Positions 3,581 to 37,404 of a DNA stretch of 64,000 nucleotides are shown here, piece after piece (position 1 is the stretch's first letter; each line of letters starts with the position of its first letter). This DNA is from Acidobacteriota bacterium. GTDB taxonomy: Bacteria; Bacillota; Syntrophomonadia; Syntrophomonadales; DTU052. The DNA is taken from NCBI GenBank assembly GCA_050259595.1, contig JBLNAX010000013.1:11364-75363 (forward strand), written 5' to 3'. Below the pieces are notes generated by a model. That model was not told the DNA's origin. It did no database searches and saw nothing but the letters and a program-made list of their open reading frames with translations. A program made the position numbers and the translations under genes.

Positions 3581-3657
3581 GGGTGATTAGCTCAGCCGGT
3601 TAGAGCGCTTGCCTCACATGCAAGAGGCCGTGGGTTCGAGTCCCTCATCGCCCACCA
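3581..3657 (+). tRNA. tRNA-Val (anticodon CAC)
   Basis: Cloverleaf with 7-bp acceptor stem GGGTGAT/ATCGCCC, anticodon stem CTTGC/GCAAG, loop CTCACAT, T-loop TTCGAGT and encoded CCA. One T-T mismatch in the T-stem. Confidence 0.8.
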
Positions 3658-3821: not shown

Positions 3822-4733
3822 ATGAATTGTCCCTATTGCAGTTCGGAAATCAATGATAACAGCCACTTCTGTCCGTTTTGTGGTAAAGAGCTTGTCAACG
3901 AAAGAAAGTGCGCATATTGCAGGACGGTGTTGGCAGACAACCAGGATACTTGTACTAAATGCGGCACCCGTGTGGGATTTCCAATGGCATCTGCAGCTGT
4001 GGTCGACCCTGGCCAACCTGACCGGAGTGAACCTGTTTATCAGACAATGGACCAAAATCAAACTGTGCGCTGTACATACTGCGGACAGCAGATCCTGGCG
4101 GGGCAGCCCTATTGTACAAAGTGCGGCACCCGAGTAGGGCGCATGACAGAACCCGTTGGGCCAGTCACTACCATGTCATCTCAGATGAATTCGCCTGTAC
4201 ATCCACCGAAAAGTGGATACGGAAATAAGGCGGCATTTACCCGAGGCGCCTATGCCGGGGTGGGAATGAGGTTTTTAGCTACGTTTATCGATTGCATAAT
4301 AGGGTCGATCACCTGGTTTATCATGATGTTTACTGGAGTGGTCATTTTGGTTATATATTTGGATATAAATTACAGCAGAAAACCAATTGACAGTGAAACG
4401 GGAATAGCTGTTCTTATTTCAACACTGGTGTGGTTTATTATAGGGGTGTTTTATTACATAGGTTTCGAGGCATTGGCTGGTGGTACGCTGGGCAAGTTGA
4501 TATGCGGAATGAGGATATTAAGAACCGACGGTTCAAAAATAGGATCGCGAGAAGCGGCATTAAGAACTGTGGCAAGAATAATCGACGGTATTTGCTTTTA
4601 CCTGTTGGCTGCACTATGTGTCTGGTTTACTGACAGCCGCCAGCGTTTGGGCGACATGATGGCTGATACGGTCGTTGTCTATAAGAAAAAGATAGATTTG
4701 AGCCAAGCTTCATTTGCAATGAAGCAATATTGA
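3822..4733 (+). CDS. zinc-ribbon repeat / RDD-family membrane protein
   Basis: Three CxxC...CxxC zinc-ribbon units (CPYCSSEI..CPFCG, CAYCRT..CTKCG, CTYCGQ..CTKCG), then an RDD-like polytopic domain (RGAYAG...FIDCIIG...). Confidence 0.7.
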   Translation: MNCPYCSSEINDNSHFCPFCGKELVNERKCAYCRTVLADNQDTCTKCGTRVGFPMASAAVVDPGQPDRSEPVYQTMDQNQTVRCTYCGQQILAGQPYCTKCGTRVGRMTEPVGPVTTMSSQMNSPVHPPKSGYGNKAAFTRGAYAGVGMRFLATFIDCIIGSITWFIMMFTGVVILVIYLDINYSRKPIDSETGIAVLISTLVWFIIGVFYYIGFEALAGGTLGKLICGMRILRTDGSKIGSREAALRTVARIIDGICFYLLAALCVWFTDSRQRLGDMMADTVVVYKKKIDLSQASFAMKQY

Positions 4734-4742
4734 TATAAGAAC

Positions 4743-5165
4743 TTACTCATTCTTTTCCACGACTAGAACTTGAACCAGCCGCAGGGGTGGCTTGGTATTC
4801 AACCTGCGATAAACTGAAGCAGAACGAAAGTATTTTGATAAGCCTGCTCTGATCAATCGTGGTTTGACAGGCTCGTATCCAAAGGGCTGAAGGATCACCT
4901 TGACCATTGTACCGACAGCTTGTTTGTTAAAGTCATTGGCCAGGTCGAATTCGGCTTGCTGGCCAAAATTGCCCTCAAGATCTACGATAACAGCGCCCAA
5001 GGCCGGATGCCCGGCATCAGAAGACAGAATCATCTTTTGGATGTTGGTGAGATCGGCTAAGAAATCGAAAATGCCCTGAGCTGAGCTGTTACCCTTGAGT
5101 CGACCATATTTACCATAGGCATCTAGGAAATCATTAAAGTCAAGAGTGCCGTTTTCATTCATCAT
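4743..5165 (-). CDS. hypothetical protein
   Basis: ORF with internal GAGGAG RBS 6 nt before ATGATG (MMNENGTLDF...). No recognisable family. Confidence 0.45.
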   Translation of the reverse strand: MMNENGTLDFNDFLDAYGKYGRLKGNSSAQGIFDFLADLTNIQKMILSSDAGHPALGAVIVDLEGNFGQQAEFDLANDFNKQAVGTMVKVILQPFGYEPVKPRLIRAGLSKYFRSASVYRRLNTKPPLRLVQVLVVEKNE

Positions 5166-5285
5166 TATCTCCTCAAAACTAAGTCTCAAAAATAAGTCTT
5201 ACTATTAAGGCTATGTATAATGGTAGGCTTTGTCAAGTGACACAATGAGAGAATCGTTGGCCGGTGTTGTGGAAACAACCCCTAC

Positions 5286-5314
5286 CTTGACAATAGCCGG
5301 ACTGATTCTTACAA
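5286..5314 (+). promoter_or_regulatory. promoter of the tRNA-Asp/Phe/Gly-SCIFF transcription unit (TTGACA-17-TACAAT)
   Basis: TTGACA at 5286-5291 and TACAAT at 5309-5314. tRNA-Asp begins at 5327. A second extended -10 (TGTATAAT) lies at about 5212. Confidence 0.55.
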
Positions 5315-5326
5315 TTATAAGAGCCC

Positions 5327-5403
5327 GGAGTTGTGGTGTAGTCGGTTAACATACTGGCCTGTCAAGCCAGAGACCGCGGGTTCGAGTCCCGTCAACTCCG
5401 CCA
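5327..5403 (+). tRNA. tRNA-Asp (GTC)
   Basis: Acceptor GGAGTTG/CAACTCC, anticodon stem CTGGC/GCCAG with loop CTGTCAA, T-loop TTCGAGT, GCCA end. Confidence 0.88.
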
Positions 5404-5407
5404 TTTT

Positions 5408-5483
<76 letters not shown>

Positions 5484-5489
5484 TTATGA

Positions 5490-5564
5490 GCGGGATTAGC
5501 TCAGTGGTAGAGCATCGGCTTCCCAAGCCGAGGGCCGCGGGTTCGAATCCCGTTTCCCGCTCCA
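5490..5564 (+). tRNA. tRNA-Gly (CCC)
   Basis: GCGGGATTAGCTCAGTGGTAGAGC..., anticodon stem TCGGC/GCCGA with loop TTCCCAA, T-loop TTCGAAT, TCCA end. Confidence 0.85.
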
Positions 5565-5600
5565 TACTTATTCTTCATCCGGTAATCAAGGGGTGAGATC

Positions 5601-5738
5601 ATGGGTAAACACGTTAACACAATCGTTGCGCCGGTACTTAAGAAAGGCGAAAACACCAACTGCAGAGAATGCCAGGCATCATGCCAATCAGCCTGCAAAA
5701 CATCATGCACAGTTGGCAATCAAGTATGTAAGAAATAA
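5601..5738 (+). CDS. scfA: SCIFF (six cysteines in forty-five residues) ribosomal peptide precursor
   Basis: 45-codon ORF MGKHVNTIVAPVLKKGENTNCRECQASCQSACKTSCTVGNQVCKK. It has exactly six Cys in 45 aa with the CxECQxSCQSACKTSC core. Strong RBS AAGGGGTGAG 6 nt upstream of the ATG. It is below the ORF-track length cutoff. Confidence 0.85.
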   Translation: MGKHVNTIVAPVLKKGENTNCRECQASCQSACKTSCTVGNQVCKK

Positions 5739-5795
5739 ACCCGTCCGACTAATGACAAAAGCGAATCTCTGCGTTATTAGAAACCCCCGTTTGAC

Positions 5796-6000
5796 GGCGA
5801 GCTGTTTCGCCTAATGCCGATGGAATCGAATCTGAGGCTTGCCGACAGATGAGCAGCGGCCAATCAACGTACTCATCAAAACGCCTGACGGCGCAGTGTC
5901 GCGCCAAATGCCGTAGGATCGAATCAGGCGCTTACAACTGATGAGCTACGGCTAATCACGGGGTTTCCTAATGCCTTGACCTTCACTCTTGTCATCAGCC
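5796..6000 (+). repeat. 2.3 tandem copies of a ~94-nt structured repeat (hairpin + AATGCCG + GGAATCGAATC-like block), possibly decayed tRNA fragments or a structured RNA
   Basis: Unit A at 5796 (GGCGAGCTGTTTCGCC TAATGCCGATGGAATCGAATCTGAGGC...GATGAG...CTCATC) and unit B at 5890 (GGCGCAGTGTCGCGCC AAATGCCGTAGGATCGAATCAGGCGC...CTGATGAG...TCATCAG). A partial third copy starts CCTAATGCC at about 5968. Confidence 0.6.
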
Positions 6001-6015
6001 TGATTGGTTAGTAAC

Positions 6016-6047
6016 GTAACCCGTGTAACGCGGGTTTTTTCTTTTTT
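6016..6047 (+). terminator. Rho-independent terminator ending the tRNA-SCIFF-repeat unit
   Basis: AACCCGTGTAACGCGGGTT followed by TTTTTCTTTTTTT. Confidence 0.85.
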
Positions 6048-6262
6048 TGCTGTGGGACAGATGTGTTCCGCTGGGCTAAACTGTTATCCGATGATGGATA
6101 GTTAGTTAAAAAGAGGGAAATAGCCAGTTTGTAGCGAATAGACAACAAAAATATAATCACACGAGCTAGCTTTCTTTGAAGTAATCATTTCGACCGCTCT
6201 TCTTGTTTTATTTGTTTTCCTGAGAGGCTTACGGAACAAAATCATATCCGGGGGGTTTATTG

Positions 6263-8875
6263 ATGAGCGATAGCCAGCAGGTCGTTGGCCACCTAACGCG
6301 TCAATACAGTATCAGGACCCTGGTTCTTTGCGCTTTGGGCAATGTGTTCTTTGGCTCTTTGTTCTGCATCTGGTATCATGTTGCGGATTTGCAGACCTGG
6401 ATACTTGTTGTTGTGGCAGCCATGGGCGGCGGCGTGGTTACAGCCGCGATCACGGTGAAGCTCAACATCAAGAGGTTCTTTGTGCCTATGGGGTTGATGC
6501 TGCATAATGTAAGTACAGTCGCTAAGGGTGATTTGAGGGATAACCTGTCCCAACACCATTTTGAGACGATGGATATCATGCGCGATGCACTGAGTAAGAT
6601 GGACACGGAAATCGTTAGATTGGTTTTTATGGTAACAGCTATTACGGGTGTAGTCGAGCAGTCGGCCAAACAATTAGGCGATGAGACGACTTCGACTAAT
6701 AATGTAGCTAGGGAGGTTTCACTGGCTATCGCTGAAGTGGCCAAGGGCGCCGCCGACCAAGACCTGGCGCTTCGCCAAATCGTCGAGGAGACCGAACGGA
6801 TAATAAGTAACATCAATATAATCGAAGAAGAGTCCAAGCAGCTTGCAGTAGGTTTTGAACAGGTCAAGGGCAGTATCGATGAAGGCTCTAAAGCTATTGA
6901 CCAGCAGCATGAGCGCTTGGAAAGCAACAGGCTGGTGATCAAGCAGATCAACCAGGCCATAACTGATTTGGCTCATAAGTCGCAAGAAATTGGCAATATC
7001 ATGGAGACCATTTCGGAAATAGCTGAGCAAACTAACCTGCTGGCCTTAAATGCATCTATTGAAGCGGCTCGCAGCGGCGAGCGCGGTCGCGGCTTTCAGG
7101 TCGTCTCTCAACAAGTGCGGAAATTGGCTGAAGAATCAGCACGGGCTGCGGTGGAAACCGGCAAGCTGACCGAAGGCATTAAAAAGAGTATACTGCAGGT
7201 CAAAACCGAAGCGCATGTGGCCGAAGAATCGGTCAGAGGGCAGGAGGAAGCCATCGAAGATAACCAGAAAGCCATTAAATCGGTTTTCACCAATATTCAA
7301 CAGATATTGGGCAGCCTTTTCAGACTGTCCGATCAGATTACCGATATTTCTAAATCGATCAATGATATGCTGGTCTCAGTGAGTCATGTTCGCGATGTGA
7401 CCGCAAAAACTTCCGATGGGGCCAATAAGATATCCACTACCGCCACCCGCCAGGCTGGGATTATGGAGCAGATCAAGGGGAAATCGATCGTCCTTTTACA
7501 TGATCTGGTTGAAGAATTAAAACAGACTACCAGCAAGTTCTCATTGCCGAAAGACTTGCAATTAGAAAAAGGGGCGGAGATAAAGCCCTTGAACCTGGAT
7601 GAATTAAAAGCGGTTGCCAAGCATTATCGAATCAAAACAGTTGTTTTTGCCGGGATCATGGGAACCGTTCTCTTCTCCTGGATCATTGCCCTGGTTGGGC
7701 AAGTTAATAATACTGAAGGATGGATCAAAGCTATTATTTGTACTGCGGCATCAGGAACGATTCTGGCCATCATTTCTACCTCCAATAATATAAAGGATTT
7801 CATTTTCCCAACGGCGGTTTTGGTAGAGTTTGCTGATGGTGTAGCCCAAGGTAATCTGAACCGCAACATAGATCAGCAGACAAGAATGGGTAAGCTGGAA
7901 ATGATCAAGGTCGAGTTTAATAACCTGCTTTCGGAAATGCGGGCCATTGCCAGTAATGTAAGAGACCACTGTATCGAGCTCCATGACGAAGCAGCCAAGA
8001 CTGTGGATATGGCTAATGAAACCTCTGTCAATGCTCAAGAGATAGGCATCACGGTGGGAGAGATCGCTCAAGGTGCTACTGACCAGGCAAGTGGTTTAAC
8101 AGATGCTTCGGCTGAACTTAGTCACATATTTAGCCATCTGGACTCCATAATGGGAACCATTTCACAGTTGACGCAATTCTCGGCAGAGACAGAGAGCACA
8201 GTTGACAATGCCTCACAAAATGCTGCTGTTCAAAAGAACAAAGTTGAACAAAATATGGGAGCCATCAATAAGGTGGCTGATGCAGTACGCGACCTCGAGG
8301 AAAAGTCAGCAGCGATCGGTCAGATAGTCGAGGTTATAACCACCATTGCTAGCGATACCAACCTATTGGCCCTGAACGCGGCTATTGAAGCGGCTAAGGC
8401 TGGAGTCGAGGGTCGGGGATTTGCAGTGGTAGCCAGTGAGGTGAAGAAATTAGCTGAAGAAACACTGGGTGCTGCCCAGAAGATATATGATTTGATAGAG
8501 GATATTCAAACCGGGACCAGAAAAGTAGTATCCGACATGGAGAATGCGCGCCAGGCCTTAAAGGACCAGGTCAAGGCGGTATACTTCAGTGAGCAGGTTC
8601 TGGAACAGGTCAATACACAAATGGGACCGATCAATATCAAGACTCGTGAATTGATCCAGAACTGCAACATAATGAATGGCGCCACCCAGCAGATCGCCCG
8701 AGATATCGAGAGTATCGCGGCGGCTAGCCAGGAGACGGCTGCCTCATCGCAAGAGGTTTCCGCTTCATCAGAAGAACAGGAGAGATTAGTGGAAAGCATG
8801 AAACATAATATGGAGCAGTTCGCAGTTCTCACAGACAAGCTTTATCGCCGGCTCTCCCGGTTGAACCTGGCCTAA
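6263..8875 (+). CDS. methyl-accepting chemotaxis protein with two complete TM-linker-MCP signalling modules (double MCP)
   Basis: Two copies of the MCP signalling core ([25 protein letters not shown] at about aa 255 and [25 protein letters not shown] at about aa 695). Each follows a hydrophobic pair and an xDGDLRE / AQGNLN linker. ATG at 6263 follows GGGGGG. Confidence 0.85.
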
Positions 8876-8925: not shown

Positions 8926-9097
8926 TGGAATCAGAACACATTGTCGTTGATTTTCTTTAATTGCTAGACAATTTATTTTCCTATAGAAGGTAATTTGTAA
9001 ATAAATAGAGAAATATACGCATATCTGCGTAATTTACCTTTTGGAAATTGTAATTTTATAAATGATTTCATTTGTGTTTCGAAGAGGAGGCAAAGAC

Positions 9098-11719
9098 ATG
9101 AATGATAGCCGGCAGCAAGTAGCTCGGTTGATTCGTCAGTATAAATATGTTACGCCTGTAGTATGCATGCTTCTCAATATTCCCTGGGGATTGCTCTTAT
9201 GTTGGTGGGCTGGTATCACTGGGGAGCATCGCACATACACGGTCATCATGGCTATGGCTGGCGGTATAGTAATAGCGTTACTGGTCATCCCCCTTAATTT
9301 AAAAAGGTTTTTTAAACCAATCAGCATTATGTTGGATCATGTTATAAATGTTGCCGATGGTGATTTGCGAGAAGATCTGGAAAAGTACGATTTCGATCAT
9401 TTGAATTTTATGAGAGATGCGCTGAACCGCATGGTGTTTGAGACCAGGCGGCTTGTTTTAATGGTCAGTGTCATCAATGGCAATGCCGAAACTAGCGGTA
9501 CCACACTGCGTGCGGAAGCCGAGAACACCAGTGTAGCGGCGTCCGAGATCGCTCGAGCTGTCAGTGAAGTGGCCAATGCCAATGGCGAGCAGGACCAAGC
9601 CCTGCAGTTGATCATTACGGAAACTGACCAAATAAGTACGATTGCTGAGCGTATTACTGGTCAGGCCCTGGCACTTGTTACAAATCTTGATGAATCTAAG
9701 GTGATTGTGAATAATGGTGTGGAGATGGTGCAGCAGCAGAAACAACACATGCTGACTAACCGCAGAATTATCAATGAGATAAATAAAGCCATATCAGATC
9801 TTTCTGTTAAGTCCCATGAAATAGGCGAAATCATGCAGGCCATTTCAGAAATAGCCGCACAGACAAATCTTTTGGCGTTGAACGCATCGATCGAGGCGGC
9901 ACGCAGTGGTGAACGCGGGCGTGGATTCCAGGTGGTAGCCCAGCAAGTCCGAAAATTAGCCGAGGAATCAGCTCGTGCGGCAGTCGAAACCGGAAGCTTG
10001 ACCGAGAGTATCAAAAACAGTATCAAGCAGGTAGTATTTGAAACGAAGGTGGCTGAGGAAACGGTCCTGGATCAGGAGGTAGCTATTGGCGAAAGCCAGA
10101 CGGTGATCAGTCAGGTCATGGATGATATTGGTGTCATTATTGCTGACATCAACCTGCTGTCCCAGGGTGTTGAAGAAATAGACTCGGCAATCAATCGTAT
10201 CGAGACCACCGTTCGGGACACTTCGGCGGTAACCTCACAAAACACGCAGTCATCACGGGAGATTGCTCTTACTGCTGACGAACAGGCCCGTTTGATGGAC
10301 AAATTTAAAATGGGTTCAAATTCACTAGGGGGACTGGTTCAGGAGCTCAAGGAGCAGGTAGCCAAATTCAAACTACCTGCTGGTTTTGACTGGAATAATG
10401 AAGTGGAATCCAAACTAGTCAGTGATGAAGACCTTAAAAACATCGCTAGAGTTTACCGCAAGAAAACAGTTATTTTATCAGGTGTGGCGGGCATGATCAT
10501 CTTTGCCCCTTTATTATATGGAGTAAGTGGTAAGCCTATATTAGCTGGCTTGGATACAGTTACCTTGATTAAGGCGACCATAATAGCTTTTATGTCAGGC
10601 TCGTTAGCTGCAATATTGTCGGCAACCAAGAATATCAAAGGCTTTATAATGCCCATGGGGGTAATCGCCAAATATGCAGACGCCATAGCACAAGGGGATC
10701 TCAGCCAACAGATTGGACCAGAACATAAAATGGGTAGCATAGAGTTCGTCCGTAATGAATTCAACAATCTTATTCAACATCTGGATCAAATCTCCCAAAG
10801 CATGAAAGACTGCTGTGTGCGCCTGCACAATGAGGCTGGTGATGCTCAAGGACTCGGTAATGAGACTGCTGTCACCGCCCGGCAAATGGCTACCAGTATC
10901 AACGAAATCGCACAAGGCGCTACTTTCCAAGCCCAGGGTATGATGGAAGCATCGGAGCAGGTCAATGAATTGTTCAGTTCACTGAAAAACATTGAAGAGT
11001 TCACAGCTATACTGTCAGTCCATTCCACAGAAGCGGCAGAAGTGGTGGAAAAGGGAGTCGCTAATACAACCGTTTTGAGGTCCAAAGCCGAACAGAATAT
11101 GGGGGCAGTTAATCGTGTAGCTGCTGCCGTTCGTGATCTAGAGGATAAATCGACTGCCATTGGGCAGATCGTTGAGGTTATCACGGCGATTGCTACTGAC
11201 ACCAATTTGCTTGCCCTTAATGCAGCTATAGAGGCTGCCCGGGCTGGCGAAGAAGGTCGGGGCTTCGCGGTCGTAGCCAGTGAGGTTAAGAAACTGGCTG
11301 AAGAGACACTGGCTGCGGCAGAAAAGATTTACGAACTGATTGGGCAGATCCAGAATGGGACAGAAAAAGTGGTCGGTGATATGGAAGCAGCCCGGAAATC
11401 ATTAGAAACTTTGGTGCAGGCCGTTTTCACCAGTCAGAATGTCATGGAACAGGTAGCCAACCGGCTGGGTCCTATCAGAAAAGAAACCCTTGTGATCATA
11501 GATGATTGTCAGGTCATGAACTCATCCACCGGGAGAATAGCCGGAAGCATACAAAGCATTGCGGCTGGTAGTCAGGAAACAGCAGCTGCTGCTGAGGAGG
11601 TACTGGCATCGACCGAGGAACAGGAACGGTCGGTAATCGGCGTTAACCAGAACTTGGAACAGTTTGCCGACTTAACCAATAAGCTTTATAGCCGTCTGCT
11701 CAAATTAAAGGTCAGCTAG
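9098..11719 (+). CDS. methyl-accepting chemotaxis protein, tandem paralog of the upstream double MCP
   Basis: Same two-module architecture as 6263-8875 ([44 protein letters not shown] is identical in block). Likely start is the ATG at 9098 after GAGGAGG; the ORF opens at 9062. Confidence 0.85.
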
Positions 11720-11744: not shown

Positions 11745-11776
11745 AAAAGCCCACCATTAGTGTGGGCTTTAATTTT
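11745..11776 (+). terminator. Rho-independent terminator
   Basis: GCCCACCATTAGTGTGGGC followed by TTTAATTTT. Confidence 0.75.
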
Positions 11777-11794: not shown

Positions 11795-11822
11795 TTGCCA
11801 TAAGCCGTATTTCGGCTAGAAT
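11795..11822 (+). promoter_or_regulatory. putative promoter for the rSAM maturase gene (TTGCCA-16-TAGAAT)
   Basis: Read by eye between the upstream terminator and the GTG start. Weak. Confidence 0.3.
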
Positions 11823-11868: not shown

Positions 11869-13260
11869 GTGGACAGCTTGACCCATCTCAAGAATTATAA
11901 TTTCTCGGCCAATATTCACCTTGTTGAGATTCAGGGCCAGTACCTGTTGTTAGATGTCAATTCAGGAGCGATCCATGTGCTCGATGAGGCTGCAGTCAGT
12001 TTTGTTAAGGGTTTACAGGAGAACGGCGGAGATTGGGATGCAGCCCGCACATCTTGCCTGCTCCACTTTGCTCCCCAAATAGTAGAAGAAATCGAGCAGG
12101 AGCTGCGGGAATCCATGAACAGCGGTTCTTTGTTCTCTGTGGAAGATGACTTGTCCACATTCAGTTATGAAGGAGCCGTTCCCAAAGCCTTGTGTCTTAA
12201 CGTGGCCCACGCCTGCAATATGCGCTGCAAATACTGTTTCGCTGGCCAGGGGACCTTCGGGGAGGAAGCCATGCTGATGAGTCGGGAGACTGCTTTCCGG
12301 GCTGTGGACTTCTTAATTGCAGCAAGCAAAGAACGCCGACACCTAGAGATAGATTTCTTTGGCGGTGAACCGTTGTTAAACTTCGATGTGCTAATAGCCA
12401 CTGTGGACTATGCGCGTCAAGAGGCAGCCCGTTCGGGTAAGGAGGTCGCACTGACCCTGACCACCAACTCACTGGACCTGGATCAGTCGGCCAGCCAGTA
12501 TCTGATCGATGAAGGGATCGCCATCATTGTAAGCCTAGACGGCCGGCAGTCAGTCAACGACTACATGCGTCCGGCGGCTGATGGCAGTGGTACCTACGAA
12601 CGGGTGCTGGCCAATATTCGCCGGATAATAGATATGAGTCCAGCAAGCTACTATGTCCGTGGCACCTTCACCGCACACAATCTGGACTTTGCGGAGGACT
12701 TCCGACATCTGGCTGAGCTCGGATTTACCAACATATCCCTGGAACCGGTTGTGGGCGGAGAAACTGGAATCTTGATTCAAGATCAGCACTTGCCGCATAT
12801 AATGAAAGAGTACGAGAAGATGGCAGATACTTTGCTGGAAATGCGAGGCCAAGGTCGGCATATAAATTTCTTTCATTTTAATCTGGATATGAACCGTGGG
12901 CCCTGCTTATCCAAGCGCTTGACGGGCTGCGGGGCCGGTGTTGAGTATCTGGCCGTAACTCCGGCCGGTGATCTTTATCCCTGCCACCAGTTCATCGGAC
13001 ACCAGGAGTTTCGCATAGGAAGCGTATTGCATGGTGTACAAAATCCGGAGCTGGTGAACAAGTTTGCACATAATACTCTGTTAGATAAAAAATGCCATAG
13101 ATGTTGGGCGCGTTTCTTCTGCGGGGGCGGCTGCCATGCTAGTGCGTTCTTTGCTAACCGTGATATAAGCGTGCCGAATGAGATAGCCTGCCAGATGCAT
13201 AAGAAGCGGTTGGAATGTGCATTTTACCTGGCAGCCAAGACAGGAGGCGGTTCTGATTAA
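11869..13260 (+). CDS. scfB: radical SAM/SPASM peptide maturase, probable SCIFF maturase
   Basis: CNMRCKYC (CxxxCxxC) rSAM cluster motif, FFGGEPLL and a C-terminal Cys-rich SPASM region (CGAG...CHRCWARFFCGGGC...C). About 100 aa of N-terminal leader-binding-like domain (IHLVEIQGQYLLLDVNSGAIHVLDE). 463 aa, the typical SCIFF-maturase size. Confidence 0.75.
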   Translation: MDSLTHLKNYNFSANIHLVEIQGQYLLLDVNSGAIHVLDEAAVSFVKGLQENGGDWDAARTSCLLHFAPQIVEEIEQELRESMNSGSLFSVEDDLSTFSYEGAVPKALCLNVAHACNMRCKYCFAGQGTFGEEAMLMSRETAFRAVDFLIAASKERRHLEIDFFGGEPLLNFDVLIATVDYARQEAARSGKEVALTLTTNSLDLDQSASQYLIDEGIAIIVSLDGRQSVNDYMRPAADGSGTYERVLANIRRIIDMSPASYYVRGTFTAHNLDFAEDFRHLAELGFTNISLEPVVGGETGILIQDQHLPHIMKEYEKMADTLLEMRGQGRHINFFHFNLDMNRGPCLSKRLTGCGAGVEYLAVTPAGDLYPCHQFIGHQEFRIGSVLHGVQNPELVNKFAHNTLLDKKCHRCWARFFCGGGCHASAFFANRDISVPNEIACQMHKKRLECAFYLAAKTGGGSD

Positions 13261-18047: not shown

Positions 18048-18187
18048 ACTATTGACAAATTCGCAGGCGTATGACGGAAGTGAAGGTCAAGGCGTTAGGA
18101 AAGACAGCGATTGAGGCGTACTTGGGGTACGTTGATTGAACGGGATTTTCGAAACAACGCAGAGATTCGCTTTTGTCATACGCCTGA

Positions 18188-19756
18188 TTAATTATTGGGG
18201 AGGACAATGTTCACGACAGTGCCCTCCTTTTCTTTGCTCTTGATTTGAATATTGCCGTTCAGGCTCTCTACGATCTGTTCACAAATAGTTAGACCTAGAC
18301 CTGAACTGCCCTTGTTAGTCGAGAAGAAAGGTTCGAAGATATTGTCCATCAAATCATTGCTGATGCCCATTCCGCTGTCGGCTACCTGCAGTGTTGTCGA
18401 ACCCCGGCCGCTAAGGGTCTTGATGGTAAGGACTCCTCCGTTAGGCATAGCATTTAGTGCATTGGAAACCAGATTCGTCAGCAGCACTTTCAATTTATCC
18501 TCGTTAGCTCGGATGGTGGCCAGGCGCTTGTCCAAATACAATTCGATCCAGATATTGAACTGCTGGGCCATTAATTCTATAGAGGGATAGAGATCAGTGA
18601 TTATCTCATTGATGTTGACATGATAAGTTTGTCCCAGATAATTTTGCGACAGCATCTGAATGTCCTTGATAGCCAACTCGATGTTTACGATCTCATCATC
18701 CAGCAGCTCCCAGGGTAAATCGTCCGGCCGATTCTTGTATAGTTGAAGAAATCCCTTGATAGTTGTCAGCGGGTTGCGGACCTTATGTACGGTTTCCTCA
18801 ACTACACTGGAAATAAGGCTGATCCGCTCACGCTTGTTATGCTTTTTCTGCCAATCGATGAAGGTCATAGTGCTTTGCATGATGGCGACCGCTCCGATGG
18901 GAGCTCCTGTGTTGTCCAGCAGCTGCTTGGTGTCAACTAGATAGGAGCTCTTTTTGCCATGCCGTTCCGGTGAATTGATAGTAATGCCGCGGTAATTGGT
19001 CCCTTCAAACATAGTAGTAAACAGTAGGCTGGACAAAGCCGGGAGGTGCTTATCGAGCACGTTTACCGACCTTCCCTCATAACTGGCAGATGAAGCGCGT
19101 AAGATTTGTTCTGCGGCTTGATTGACCACATTGATCTTACCGCTGCCATCGATCACGATGGCTGGCCAGGGCACCTGTTCTAGGACCGCATTAGCCAGGC
19201 TTCCTTGAGTCGGTAATGACTTTACTTCAGGCTCGGCTACCAGGATGATCCTGCTGCTGCTGACATTAACCGTTATCTCAAGCGGCACACGGATGCCGGA
19301 ACCATTATATATACTAACTCGGTAATTCTGAATATTGCAGGGGTTTTTTCTCCAGGAACGGACCTTCTCATACTCTTCGGCTTCCAATACCTTGCGCAGT
19401 AGTGATGTGATGCTGCGACCAAGTATTTGGCCTAGCGGCATGGCCAGTAATTCTACCATTTCCTGATTAACATCAGTGATATGGCCGTCGACGTCGATCA
19501 ACAACGCACCAGCCGAAAACCAGCGAAATCCGCCTGTTTGGGTGGGATATTCTAAACCATATGGCCGATTATTTGACACTTGTACCAACAGTTTTCCCCC
19601 TTCTGTTGGATTGCATATCAATTTAATACACTTCGCACTATATTCCACCAAAACAGGGGCTATTCCTCCAACGAAAGATGACTTATTTTGTTCTAGAATA
19701 GGGTTTTGGCGGGGGTGGTTGCCATAATGCCCGTATAAATCGGAATTTTCAGGCAT
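18188..19756 (-). CDS. cytoplasmic PAS-domain sensor histidine kinase (KinA-like), orphan
   Basis: H-box VHKVRNPLTTIKGFLQL, N-box LVSNALNAM, G-boxes DSGMGI and GLGLTI. Two PAS-like segments. No adjacent response regulator. Start uncertain; an alternative TTG at 19588 follows AAGGGGGA. Confidence 0.8.
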   Translation of the reverse strand: MPENSDLYGHYGNHPRQNPILEQNKSSFVGGIAPVLVEYSAKCIKLICNPTEGGKLLVQVSNNRPYGLEYPTQTGGFRWFSAGALLIDVDGHITDVNQEMVELLAMPLGQILGRSITSLLRKVLEAEEYEKVRSWRKNPCNIQNYRVSIYNGSGIRVPLEITVNVSSSRIILVAEPEVKSLPTQGSLANAVLEQVPWPAIVIDGSGKINVVNQAAEQILRASSASYEGRSVNVLDKHLPALSSLLFTTMFEGTNYRGITINSPERHGKKSSYLVDTKQLLDNTGAPIGAVAIMQSTMTFIDWQKKHNKRERISLISSVVEETVHKVRNPLTTIKGFLQLYKNRPDDLPWELLDDEIVNIELAIKDIQMLSQNYLGQTYHVNINEIITDLYPSIELMAQQFNIWIELYLDKRLATIRANEDKLKVLLTNLVSNALNAMPNGGVLTIKTLSGRGSTTLQVADSGMGISNDLMDNIFEPFFSTNKGSSGLGLTICEQIVESLNGNIQIKSKEKEGTVVNIVLPNN

Positions 19757-37087: not shown

Positions 37088-37285
37088 ATGAATGGAACAG
37101 TAAAATGGTTTAACGAGAGCAAGGGTTTTGGGTTTATTGAGACCGATCAGGGAACCGATGTCTTTGTCCACCAGTCGTCGATCTCGGGTGGAGCGGCACG
37201 GGCTCTGGCCGAAGGGCAGAGAGTTAAATTTGACGTAACAACGGGACCTAAGGGGCAGCAGGCTTCGAACGTTCAATTGATCTAA
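37088..37285 (+). CDS. cold-shock protein (CspA family)
   Basis: [22 protein letters not shown]...VFVHQSSI contains the RNP1/RNP2 motifs. 65 aa. Confidence 0.92.
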
Positions 37286-37302
37286 CCCTCCGGAATCATC
37301 AA

Positions 37303-37329
37303 AAAGGCCGCTCTTACGGGCGGCCTTTA
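37303..37329 (+). terminator. Rho-independent terminator after csp
   Basis: AGGCCGC-TCTTACG-GGCGGCCT followed by TTT. Confidence 0.65.
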
Positions 37330-37404
37330 GACAATTAACACAAGCAAACATTTGCATAGTTTCGAAAAGCCGGTTCAAGCAACGCTCATGTGTAAGGGCT
37401 CGAA

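Follow-up and report, generated by a model that had tools for sequence, protein, structure and literature searches.

A SCIFF ranthipeptide precursor gene that appears to be co-transcribed with a tRNA cluster and lies apart from its maturase gene in a Syntrophomonadaceae-like genome

The stretch of DNA analyzed here, 64,000 nt of contig JBLNAX010000013.1 (GenBank assembly GCA_050259595.1, positions 11,364 to 75,363, forward strand; hereafter the window), carries scfA at 5601–5738 on the plus strand, the gene for a 45 amino acid, six-cysteine precursor of the SCIFF ranthipeptides, a family of peptides that are made by ribosomes and modified after translation (RiPPs). scfA stands directly behind genes for tRNA-Asp, tRNA-Phe and tRNA-Gly and probably shares a transcript with them, while scfB, the gene for its radical SAM maturase, lies further downstream behind two chemoreceptor genes. 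What the window holds is a known family with a modest organizational variant, to which the separation of scfA from scfB and a 280 nt repeat in the 3′ untranslated region (UTR) of scfA add extra quirks.

The 45 codons at 5601–5738 translate to MGKHVNTIVAPVLKKGENTNCRECQASCQSACKTSCTVGNQVCKK, with Cys at positions 21, 24, 28, 32, 36 and 43, which bears out the six-cysteine open reading frame (ORF) given in a preliminary description of this DNA. That description had also assigned the peptide to SCIFF, and the hidden Markov model (HMM) that it named as a check, TIGR03973 (“six-cysteine ranthipeptide SCIFF”), matched ScfA with 64.5 bits against a cutoff of 50 (E = 6e-18), in agreement with PF13165 (69.6 bits, cutoff 27, E = 2e-19). 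In an alignment of 29 ScfA members, the peptide of the window keeps 21/21 of the invariant columns; it has the invariant C-terminal core SCQSACKTSCTVGNQxC, and Cys32, Thr34 and Thr37 are all conserved. An exact-sequence look-up returned an identical 45 aa protein in NCBI, MGE5415410.1, named “six-cysteine ranthipeptide SCIFF”, on an 88,342 bp contig of a metagenome-assembled genome (MAG) that also encodes PurA (MGE5415407.1) and a “thioether cross-link-forming SCIFF peptide maturase” (MGE5415413.1, scfB). The gene had been presented as unannotated, and this has to be withdrawn: scfA is a bona fide, already annotated member of a well-known RiPP family. At 45 codons it is short enough to escape a six-frame track, yet it is called by current pipelines (cf. 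PMC5300114), and the case holds no new lesson for annotation, as the pipelines of today already find the gene. No second scfA-like ORF was found within the 64 kb window.

Comparison with the locus of a sister genome (L081) brings out how scfA has changed. The two genes are 84.8% identical at the nucleotide level, with 19 of the 21 differences at codon position 3, and the codon changes comprise 17 synonymous and 3 non-synonymous ones; the same bias towards position 3 in the scfA frame is seen against L082, L083 and L087. These comparisons indicate that strong purifying selection has acted on the scfA frame since the window and L081 parted. The longest ORF at this place in a mechanical six-frame list is a different one, an overlapping frame of 73 aa at 5593–5814, and it could be argued that this is the real gene and the SCIFF frame a coincidence. 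However, the 73 aa frame has internal stops in 4/4 relatives (L081, L082, L083 and L087), its C-terminal third falls inside the 280 nt insertion that is absent from L081, and the two curated HMMs match the SCIFF frame instead. The stop codons in the relatives and the overlap with the insertion refute the 73 aa ORF as a gene, just as the preliminary description had suspected, and we leave it practically no chance of being the true coding frame.

Turning to the transcription of scfA, a sigma-70-type promoter-like site, TTGACA-17-TACAAT with 11/12 matches, is found at 5287–5315 on the plus strand, 12 nt before tRNA-Asp; a tRNA promoter had been placed at 5286–5314, and the site is indeed there, with its coordinates now corrected. 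The same hexamers occur at the equivalent place in L081, and the counterpart in L083 is a TTGACA-17-TATGAT ahead of the tRNA cluster. Behind the promoter-like site follow tRNA-Asp (GTC; 5327–5403), tRNA-Phe (GAA; 5408–5483) and tRNA-Gly (CCC; 5490–5564), all on the plus strand with an encoded CCA and all found by both ARAGORN and Rfam (RF00005, 72.6 bits for tRNA-Asp). tRNA-Gly is syntenic in L081–L089 and L001. Since tRNA-Gly ends at 5564 and the ATG stands at 5601, the gap between them (5565–5600), a spacer or 5′ UTR, is exactly the 36 nt described before, and the ribosome binding site noted there corresponds to a Shine-Dalgarno-like GGGGTGA at 5590–5596, 4 nt before the ATG. A gap of this length is too short to fit a terminator, a promoter and a 5′ UTR. 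It is identical to that of L081 at 32/36 nt, shows no significant structure (z = −0.26), and was found to contain no hairpin and no sigma-70-type promoter-like or terminator-like site, with no site reaching 9/12 matches. When 4700–6400 was scanned, the sole promoter-like site on the plus strand upstream of scfA was the one at 5287–5315, and the sole terminator-like site on that strand was a hairpin with a T-run of the intrinsic type at 6018–6046, for which L081 has an orthologous terminator. The observation that scfA has no visible promoter of its own was thus accurate for the sigma-70-type consensus, which is what the promoter scan covers.

Under the arrangement that we propose, transcription would start at the site at 5287–5315, read as a sigma-A-type promoter, and would give one primary transcript of ~725 nt, from about 5322 to 6046, containing the three tRNAs, scfA, a 3′ UTR with the 280 nt repeat, and the terminator. 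RNase P and 3′-processing nucleases would then free the three tRNAs, leaving the 5′ end of the scfA mRNA in the 36 nt spacer, and this mRNA would be translated from the GGGGTGA Shine-Dalgarno site. We consider co-transcription of scfA with tRNA-Asp/Phe/Gly probable, and we still infer it, because the scan covers sigma-70-type promoters only and the support is drawn from sequence.

Several points weigh against this proposal. Promoter-like sites in the scanned region numbered 3 where 2.1 were expected, so that they are not significant in themselves, and they represent the sigma-70 consensus only. scfA may also have a promoter that is recognized by a different sigma factor or that overlaps tRNA-Gly at its 3′ end. 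Syntrophothermus lipocalidus and L088/89 have a short hairpin with a T-run between tRNA-Gly and scfA and no recognizable promoter after it, which means that there is either read-through or a set of unrecognized promoters in the lineage. On the side of the peptide, a second scfA/scfB pair may exist elsewhere in the genome, of which 64 kb were covered, and the cross-linked residues are in dispute even for the characterized homologs, where the thioether acceptor has been given as Thr37 or as Thr34 (PMC8326336).

An alternative is that scfA is genuine but has its own promoter, either one for an alternative sigma factor, such as a sporulation or stationary-phase one, or one overlapping the tRNA-Gly 3′ end, and that its position behind the tRNAs is synteny without coupling. 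The scan is blind to anything but the sigma-70 consensus, a terminator-like hairpin follows tRNA-Gly in S. lipocalidus and L088/89, and a terminator together with a sigma-70-like promoter insulates scfA in L082, L009, L010, L052 and L034, all of which would suit such a promoter. However, the window offers it only the 36 nt between tRNA and ATG, ~15 of which are taken by the Shine-Dalgarno site and its spacing, and there is no site at 9/12 matches to be found in them. Furthermore, there is no terminator between the tRNAs and scfA, and therefore read-through would occur in any case. The arrangement and the spacer are kept in L081, and similar terminator-less gaps of 45–51 nt exist in L087 and L083. 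Taken with the evidence on both sides, a promoter private to scfA seems to us unlikely, though worth keeping in mind.

Co-transcription with the tRNAs can also be viewed against the wider distribution of the arrangement. When GTDB species representatives were scanned for the conserved SCIFF core, 80 loci were obtained, to which close relatives were added by exact protein look-up. A tRNA gene on the same strand within 300 nt upstream of scfA was present in only 4 of the 76 sampled loci whose upstream sequence was long enough; of these four, three (L009, L010 and L052), as well as L034, have a strong hairpin and T-run followed by a −35/−10 pair in the gap, and the fourth, L001, has no clear terminator there. 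In the Syntrophomonadaceae-like clade, nearly every locus has tRNA-Gly(CCC) as the next gene upstream of scfA. The gap between the two genes is 36 nt in the window and L081, 45 nt in L087, 51 nt in L083 (where the sole promoter-like site precedes tRNA-Val and no terminator-like site occurs up to scfB), 58 nt in S. lipocalidus L085 (with a short hairpin and T-run and no promoter-like site after it), 71 nt in L088/89, 94 nt in L082 (with a terminator and TTGCAC-17-TATAAT), 135 nt in L001, and 1.4 kb in L086, in which a PAS gene lies between and scfA has its own promoter. Since tRNA-Gly(CCC) precedes scfA nearly throughout the clade, we take the linkage of the two genes to be an old synteny. The state of the window, with neither terminator nor promoter in the gap, forms one end of a spectrum, and because some relatives keep both, its simplest reading is as a transcriptional fusion of derived origin, in which scfA would have lost the terminator and promoter that part it from tRNA-Gly in several relatives. 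The coupling had been called unusual beforehand, and this is right at large, as the linkage is rare and insulated in three of its four instances, but it is not a one-off, being part of a lineage synteny with gaps of 36–135 nt. A literature search on SCIFF–tRNA linkage, on SCIFF in Syntrophomonas and on tRNA operons carrying a RiPP precursor found no relevant report.

Two of the spacers have details of their own. In S. lipocalidus (CP002048.1, L085 7829–8001) a promoter-like site precedes tRNA-Gly(ccc) and the hairpin in the 58 nt gap has 6 bp ahead of its T-run; it may be a leaky terminator or an attenuator that sets scfA expression. The tRNA-Gly–scfA spacer of a Syntrophomonadaceae MAG (L001 9866–10000) holds a tandem duplication of ~62 nt (CCATTATTATTTCGCGAGCGCAGCGAGCATAYAATCCGT...) and no clear terminator. 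The make-up of the tRNA cluster differs as well. In L083, purA is followed by an unbroken run of tRNA-Val, tRNA-Phe and tRNA-Gly; the tRNA-Val of the window (3581–3657) is parted from the Asp-Phe-Gly cluster (from 5327) by two genes, one for a zinc-ribbon/RDD membrane protein (3822–4733) and an uncharacterized one of 148 aa on the opposite strand (4743–5189). By this comparison, the separation of tRNA-Val is another local rearrangement of the region.

The second organizational feature of the system is the position of scfB, which encodes a radical SAM/SPASM SCIFF maturase of 463 aa at 11869–13260 on the plus strand, the protein annotated as the maturase above. It scores 499.2 bits with TIGR03974 (cutoff 425), 445.9 bits with the “not_ScfB” exception model for ScfB-related orphans NF040492, far under the cutoff of 855, and 66.5 bits with the SPASM model TIGR04085 (cutoff 27), and the radical SAM motif CNMRCKYC (CxxxCxxC) occupies residues 116–123. 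The SCIFF system is complete, since scfB is present in the window, but 6,131 nt, holding two genes for methyl-accepting chemotaxis proteins (MCPs), separate its start from the scfA stop codon. The preliminary description was silent both on the maturase not adjoining scfA and on the 280 nt repeat. The distance is out of the ordinary: scfB lies within 500 nt of scfA in 74 of the 80 sampled loci, the other 6 being without scfB in the flank that was fetched, and in a published survey the radical SAM genes located no more than 500 bp from scfA, 234 of 234, were all ScfB (PMC5300114). The six loci whose fetched downstream flanks show no ScfB-like gene are L012, L026 and L040 (10 kb) and L013, L031 and L034 (shorter flanks); they belong to Peptococcaceae, Quinella, Selenomonadaceae and others, and are candidates for further split or orphan SCIFF systems.

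In the relatives L082, L083, L086, L087, L088/89 and S. lipocalidus L084/85, the order of genes is (purA), tRNAs, scfA, scfB, in most cases chromate transporter genes, a LysM/M23 peptidase, peptidase MA and murA. In the sister locus L081, ScfA is 93%, ScfB 80% and MurA 97% identical to that of the window. An MCP insertion between scfA and scfB is seen only in the window, which has two such genes, and in L081, which has one; scfA and scfB are adjacent in L082–L089. MCP1 (6260–8875, plus strand, ~870 aa, with two MCP-signal modules) has its probable true start at ATG 6263, and MCP2 (9062–11719, plus strand, ~870 aa) near 9098. MCP2 is the ortholog of the single L081 MCP, to which it is 85% identical, while MCP1 is a paralog that shares 48% identity with MCP2 and 49% with the L081 MCP. 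Because only L081 shares the insertion, and does so with the ortholog of MCP2, the split of scfA from scfB is, on comparative grounds, a recent and lineage-specific rearrangement, in which chemoreceptor genes would have been inserted between them, two in the window and a single one in the sister genome. Each of the two MCPs is built as an unusual “double MCP”, with two complete transmembrane/HAMP/MCP-signal modules one after the other. A functional tie of these chemoreceptors to SCIFF signalling was considered and set aside, the insertion being confined to the window and L081.

As for transcription across this interval, a terminator-like hairpin follows MCP2 at 11746–11770 (plus strand), and of the promoter-like sites in the interval the best one, TTGCCA-16-TAGAAT at 11795–11822 (plus strand), precedes scfB with its hexamers conserved in L081. 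With terminator-like sites after both scfA and MCP2 and a conserved promoter-like site before scfB, scfA and scfB look like separate transcription units. It could be asked whether scfA, parted from scfB by chemoreceptors and burdened with a repeat in its 3′ UTR, is a relic in the course of being lost that is no longer productively expressed or matured. The 6.1 kb between the genes, against a distance of at most 500 nt in 74/80 loci, and the insertion of 280 nt between the scfA stop codon and its terminator speak for this. However, the purifying selection described above, with 19/21 differences at codon position 3, has acted since the split from L081, when the MCP insertion was already there, and the invariant residues, the start codon, the Shine-Dalgarno site and the terminator are all intact, as is scfB, which scores above its cutoff. 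We regard decay of scfA as very improbable.

Of everything in the region, the repeat that separates the scfA stop codon from the terminator is perhaps the least explored. It occupies 280 nt at 5745–6024 (plus strand) and is bordered by a direct repeat, AACCCGT, at 5738–5744 and 6018–6024. In L081 the terminator comes directly after the scfA stop codon (TAAACCCGCTTCTATCGCGGGTTTTT), and removing 5745–6024 makes the window colinear with L081. The 5′ arm (...TGACAAAAGCGAATCTCTGCGTT...) pairs with the 3′ arm (...CCTAATGCCTTGACCTTCACTCTTGTCA...) into a rod that encloses two tandem hairpin units of ~93 nt, and the 3′ region with the insert (5739–6050) folds with z = −3.04. By eye, the helices of the two units differ in a compensatory manner, the outer ones being GCCGAUG/CAGCGGC and GCCGUAG/CUACGGC and the inner ones AUCUG/CAGAU and AUCAG/CUGAU. 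The units may be read as k-turn-like, with a C-helix GCCGNNG/CNNCGGC, a 3 nt bulge, tandem G-A/A-G pairs and a helix AUCNG/CNGAU. Rfam searches of the whole window at gathering thresholds and of 5200–6300 at E ≤ 10 returned only the tRNAs and chance-level matches, none of them in the scfA 3′ region.

Further copies of the element were found in the window and beyond it. Copy 2, which consists of the frame only without internal units, is at 18056–18190 on the minus strand, right behind the stop codon that ends a histidine kinase gene (18188–19756, minus strand), and folds with a minimum free energy of −36.1 kcal/mol (z = −5.96); L081 has at this site a short hairpin only, with the same outer 8 bp. 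A third copy, weak and diverged and again a frame without internal units, is at 37327–37390 (plus strand), after the terminator of a small ORF (37089–37286) that we read as a cold-shock protein gene. A single hairpin unit flanked by GGCTTG occurs in L081 (3945–4006, minus strand) between the MCP gene and scfB and is absent at the orthologous site of the window (~11785), and a three-armed version lies between convergent genes on an unrelated metagenome contig (Ga0179951_1193336, L115 340–640, plus strand), with an outer stem that covaries with the window copies. An alignment of the arms of three copies has double changes in 10/34 pairs, although 4 of these 10 are beside the artificial GAAA joining loop, and with three sequences the result is statistically weak. 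When metagenomes were scanned with a gapped pattern of 21 bases for the unit, 53 stretches were returned, among which L115 was the sole true homolog, the other 52 being chance matches inside unrelated and mostly GC-rich sequence, without P1 complementarity. Profiles of the 5′ and 3′ arms, run with nhmmer over ~1.6 Mb of fetched loci, gave no additional copies. Two other identities considered for the element did not stand: a hammerhead ribozyme, suggested by CUGAUGAG in the units, fits with two helices only, leaves no room for stems I and III and has no Rfam hammerhead match, and a small ORF in copies 1 and 2 (MTKANLCV...) is unlikely, as it has no Shine-Dalgarno site and its downstream frames differ between the copies.

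With no more than five copies to go by, the best tentative label for the element would be a structured intergenic repeat of the REP/REPIN/MITE kind that lands at hairpin/terminator junctions. Like REP, BIME, REPIN and MITE repeats, it is short, non-coding and hairpin-forming, has several copies at gene 3′ ends or terminators, shows presence/absence polymorphism between sister genomes and keeps its stem by compensatory changes. Unlike them, it is modular, being a rod-like frame that encloses from zero to three hairpin arms, and has no Rfam match, and no transposase (RAYT, IS200/605 or other) to go with it was found among the ~30 window ORFs that were scanned.

The host of these genes is best placed by the genes themselves. 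The best relatives of ScfA, ScfB, PurA and MurA, together with the gene order, are those of Syntrophomonadaceae, including S. lipocalidus, and a butyryl-CoA:acetate CoA-transferase homolog (below the model cutoff) and homologs of sporulation-type kinases in the window are consistent with this. SCIFF is expected in Clostridia and related Firmicutes, which agrees with a Syntrophomonadaceae affinity and conflicts with the NCBI label Acidobacteriota on the contig, and that label looks erroneous. The labels of sibling JBLMZ* MAGs (Saccharibacteria, Chitinophagales and Solirubrobacterales) look erroneous as well; the SCIFF loci of these MAGs agree with Syntrophomonadaceae in synteny and are most similar to theirs, the locus of the one labelled Solirubrobacterales lying on a 467 kb contig.

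Overall, the idea of co-transcription with the tRNAs is a reasonable one that gains support from the comparison of relatives, and it would describe a lineage trait of modest general significance. Quorum sensing has been proposed as the SCIFF role in solventogenic clostridia (PMC8326336). Few RiPP systems are as widely conserved in anaerobic Firmicutes as SCIFF, and a lineage in which the precursor is apparently driven by a tRNA promoter and transcribed apart from its maturase would be a natural experiment on the need for co-expression of precursor and enzyme and on the physiological signal that controls the peptide. A practical system for the tRNA–scfA question is the cultured relative S. lipocalidus, with its tRNA-Gly 58 nt upstream of scfA. 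One could go further and join everything into a single account, in which scfA was captured by a tRNA operon and uncoupled from scfB, leaving its supply under tRNA-type (growth-rate or stringent) control and ScfB regulated separately, which would point to a role for SCIFF in housekeeping or growth-state signalling and not to a classical secondary metabolite, and in which the insertion represents an undescribed mobile family of modular structured RNAs with k-turn-like arms that targets hairpin/terminator junctions and possibly alters mRNA stability; as a whole, this account is speculative and we think it unlikely to prove right.

Set beside the known SCIFF pairs CteA/CteB of Clostridium thermocellum and Tte1186a/Tte1186 of Caldanaerobacter subterraneus, the window agrees in its 45 aa six-Cys precursor, in the invariant core C-x-E-C-x-x-SCQSACKTSCTVGNQ-x-C including Cys32, Thr34 and Thr37, in a radical SAM/SPASM maturase above the ScfB cutoff and in having no dedicated protease or exporter beside its genes. 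By homology to these pairs, the ScfA leader would be bound by ScfB, whose radical SAM/SPASM chemistry would install at least one Cys-to-Thr non-alpha (C-gamma) thioether, from Cys32. The window differs from these systems in the 6.1 kb between scfA and scfB, with two chemoreceptor genes and terminator- and promoter-like signals between them, and in an scfA that has no recognizable promoter of its own and stands 36 nt behind a tRNA cluster. For this last feature the nearest likeness is found elsewhere. Mixed tRNA–mRNA operons exist in E. coli, namely thrU-tyrU-glyT-thrT-tufB and tyrT-tyrV-tpr, and tpr is a very small ORF distal to tRNA genes. In both operons the tRNAs come first and the protein gene last, with one promoter and one terminator, and tRNA processing frees the mRNA; the proposed scfA transcript is of the same design, and the window likewise has a promoter-like site upstream of the tRNAs and no terminator before the ORF, the first one being at 6018. 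Unlike tufB and tpr, the cargo here is a RiPP precursor on a co-transcript inferred from sequence, and the comparative data suggest that the coupling arose within one lineage by loss of an intervening terminator and promoter.

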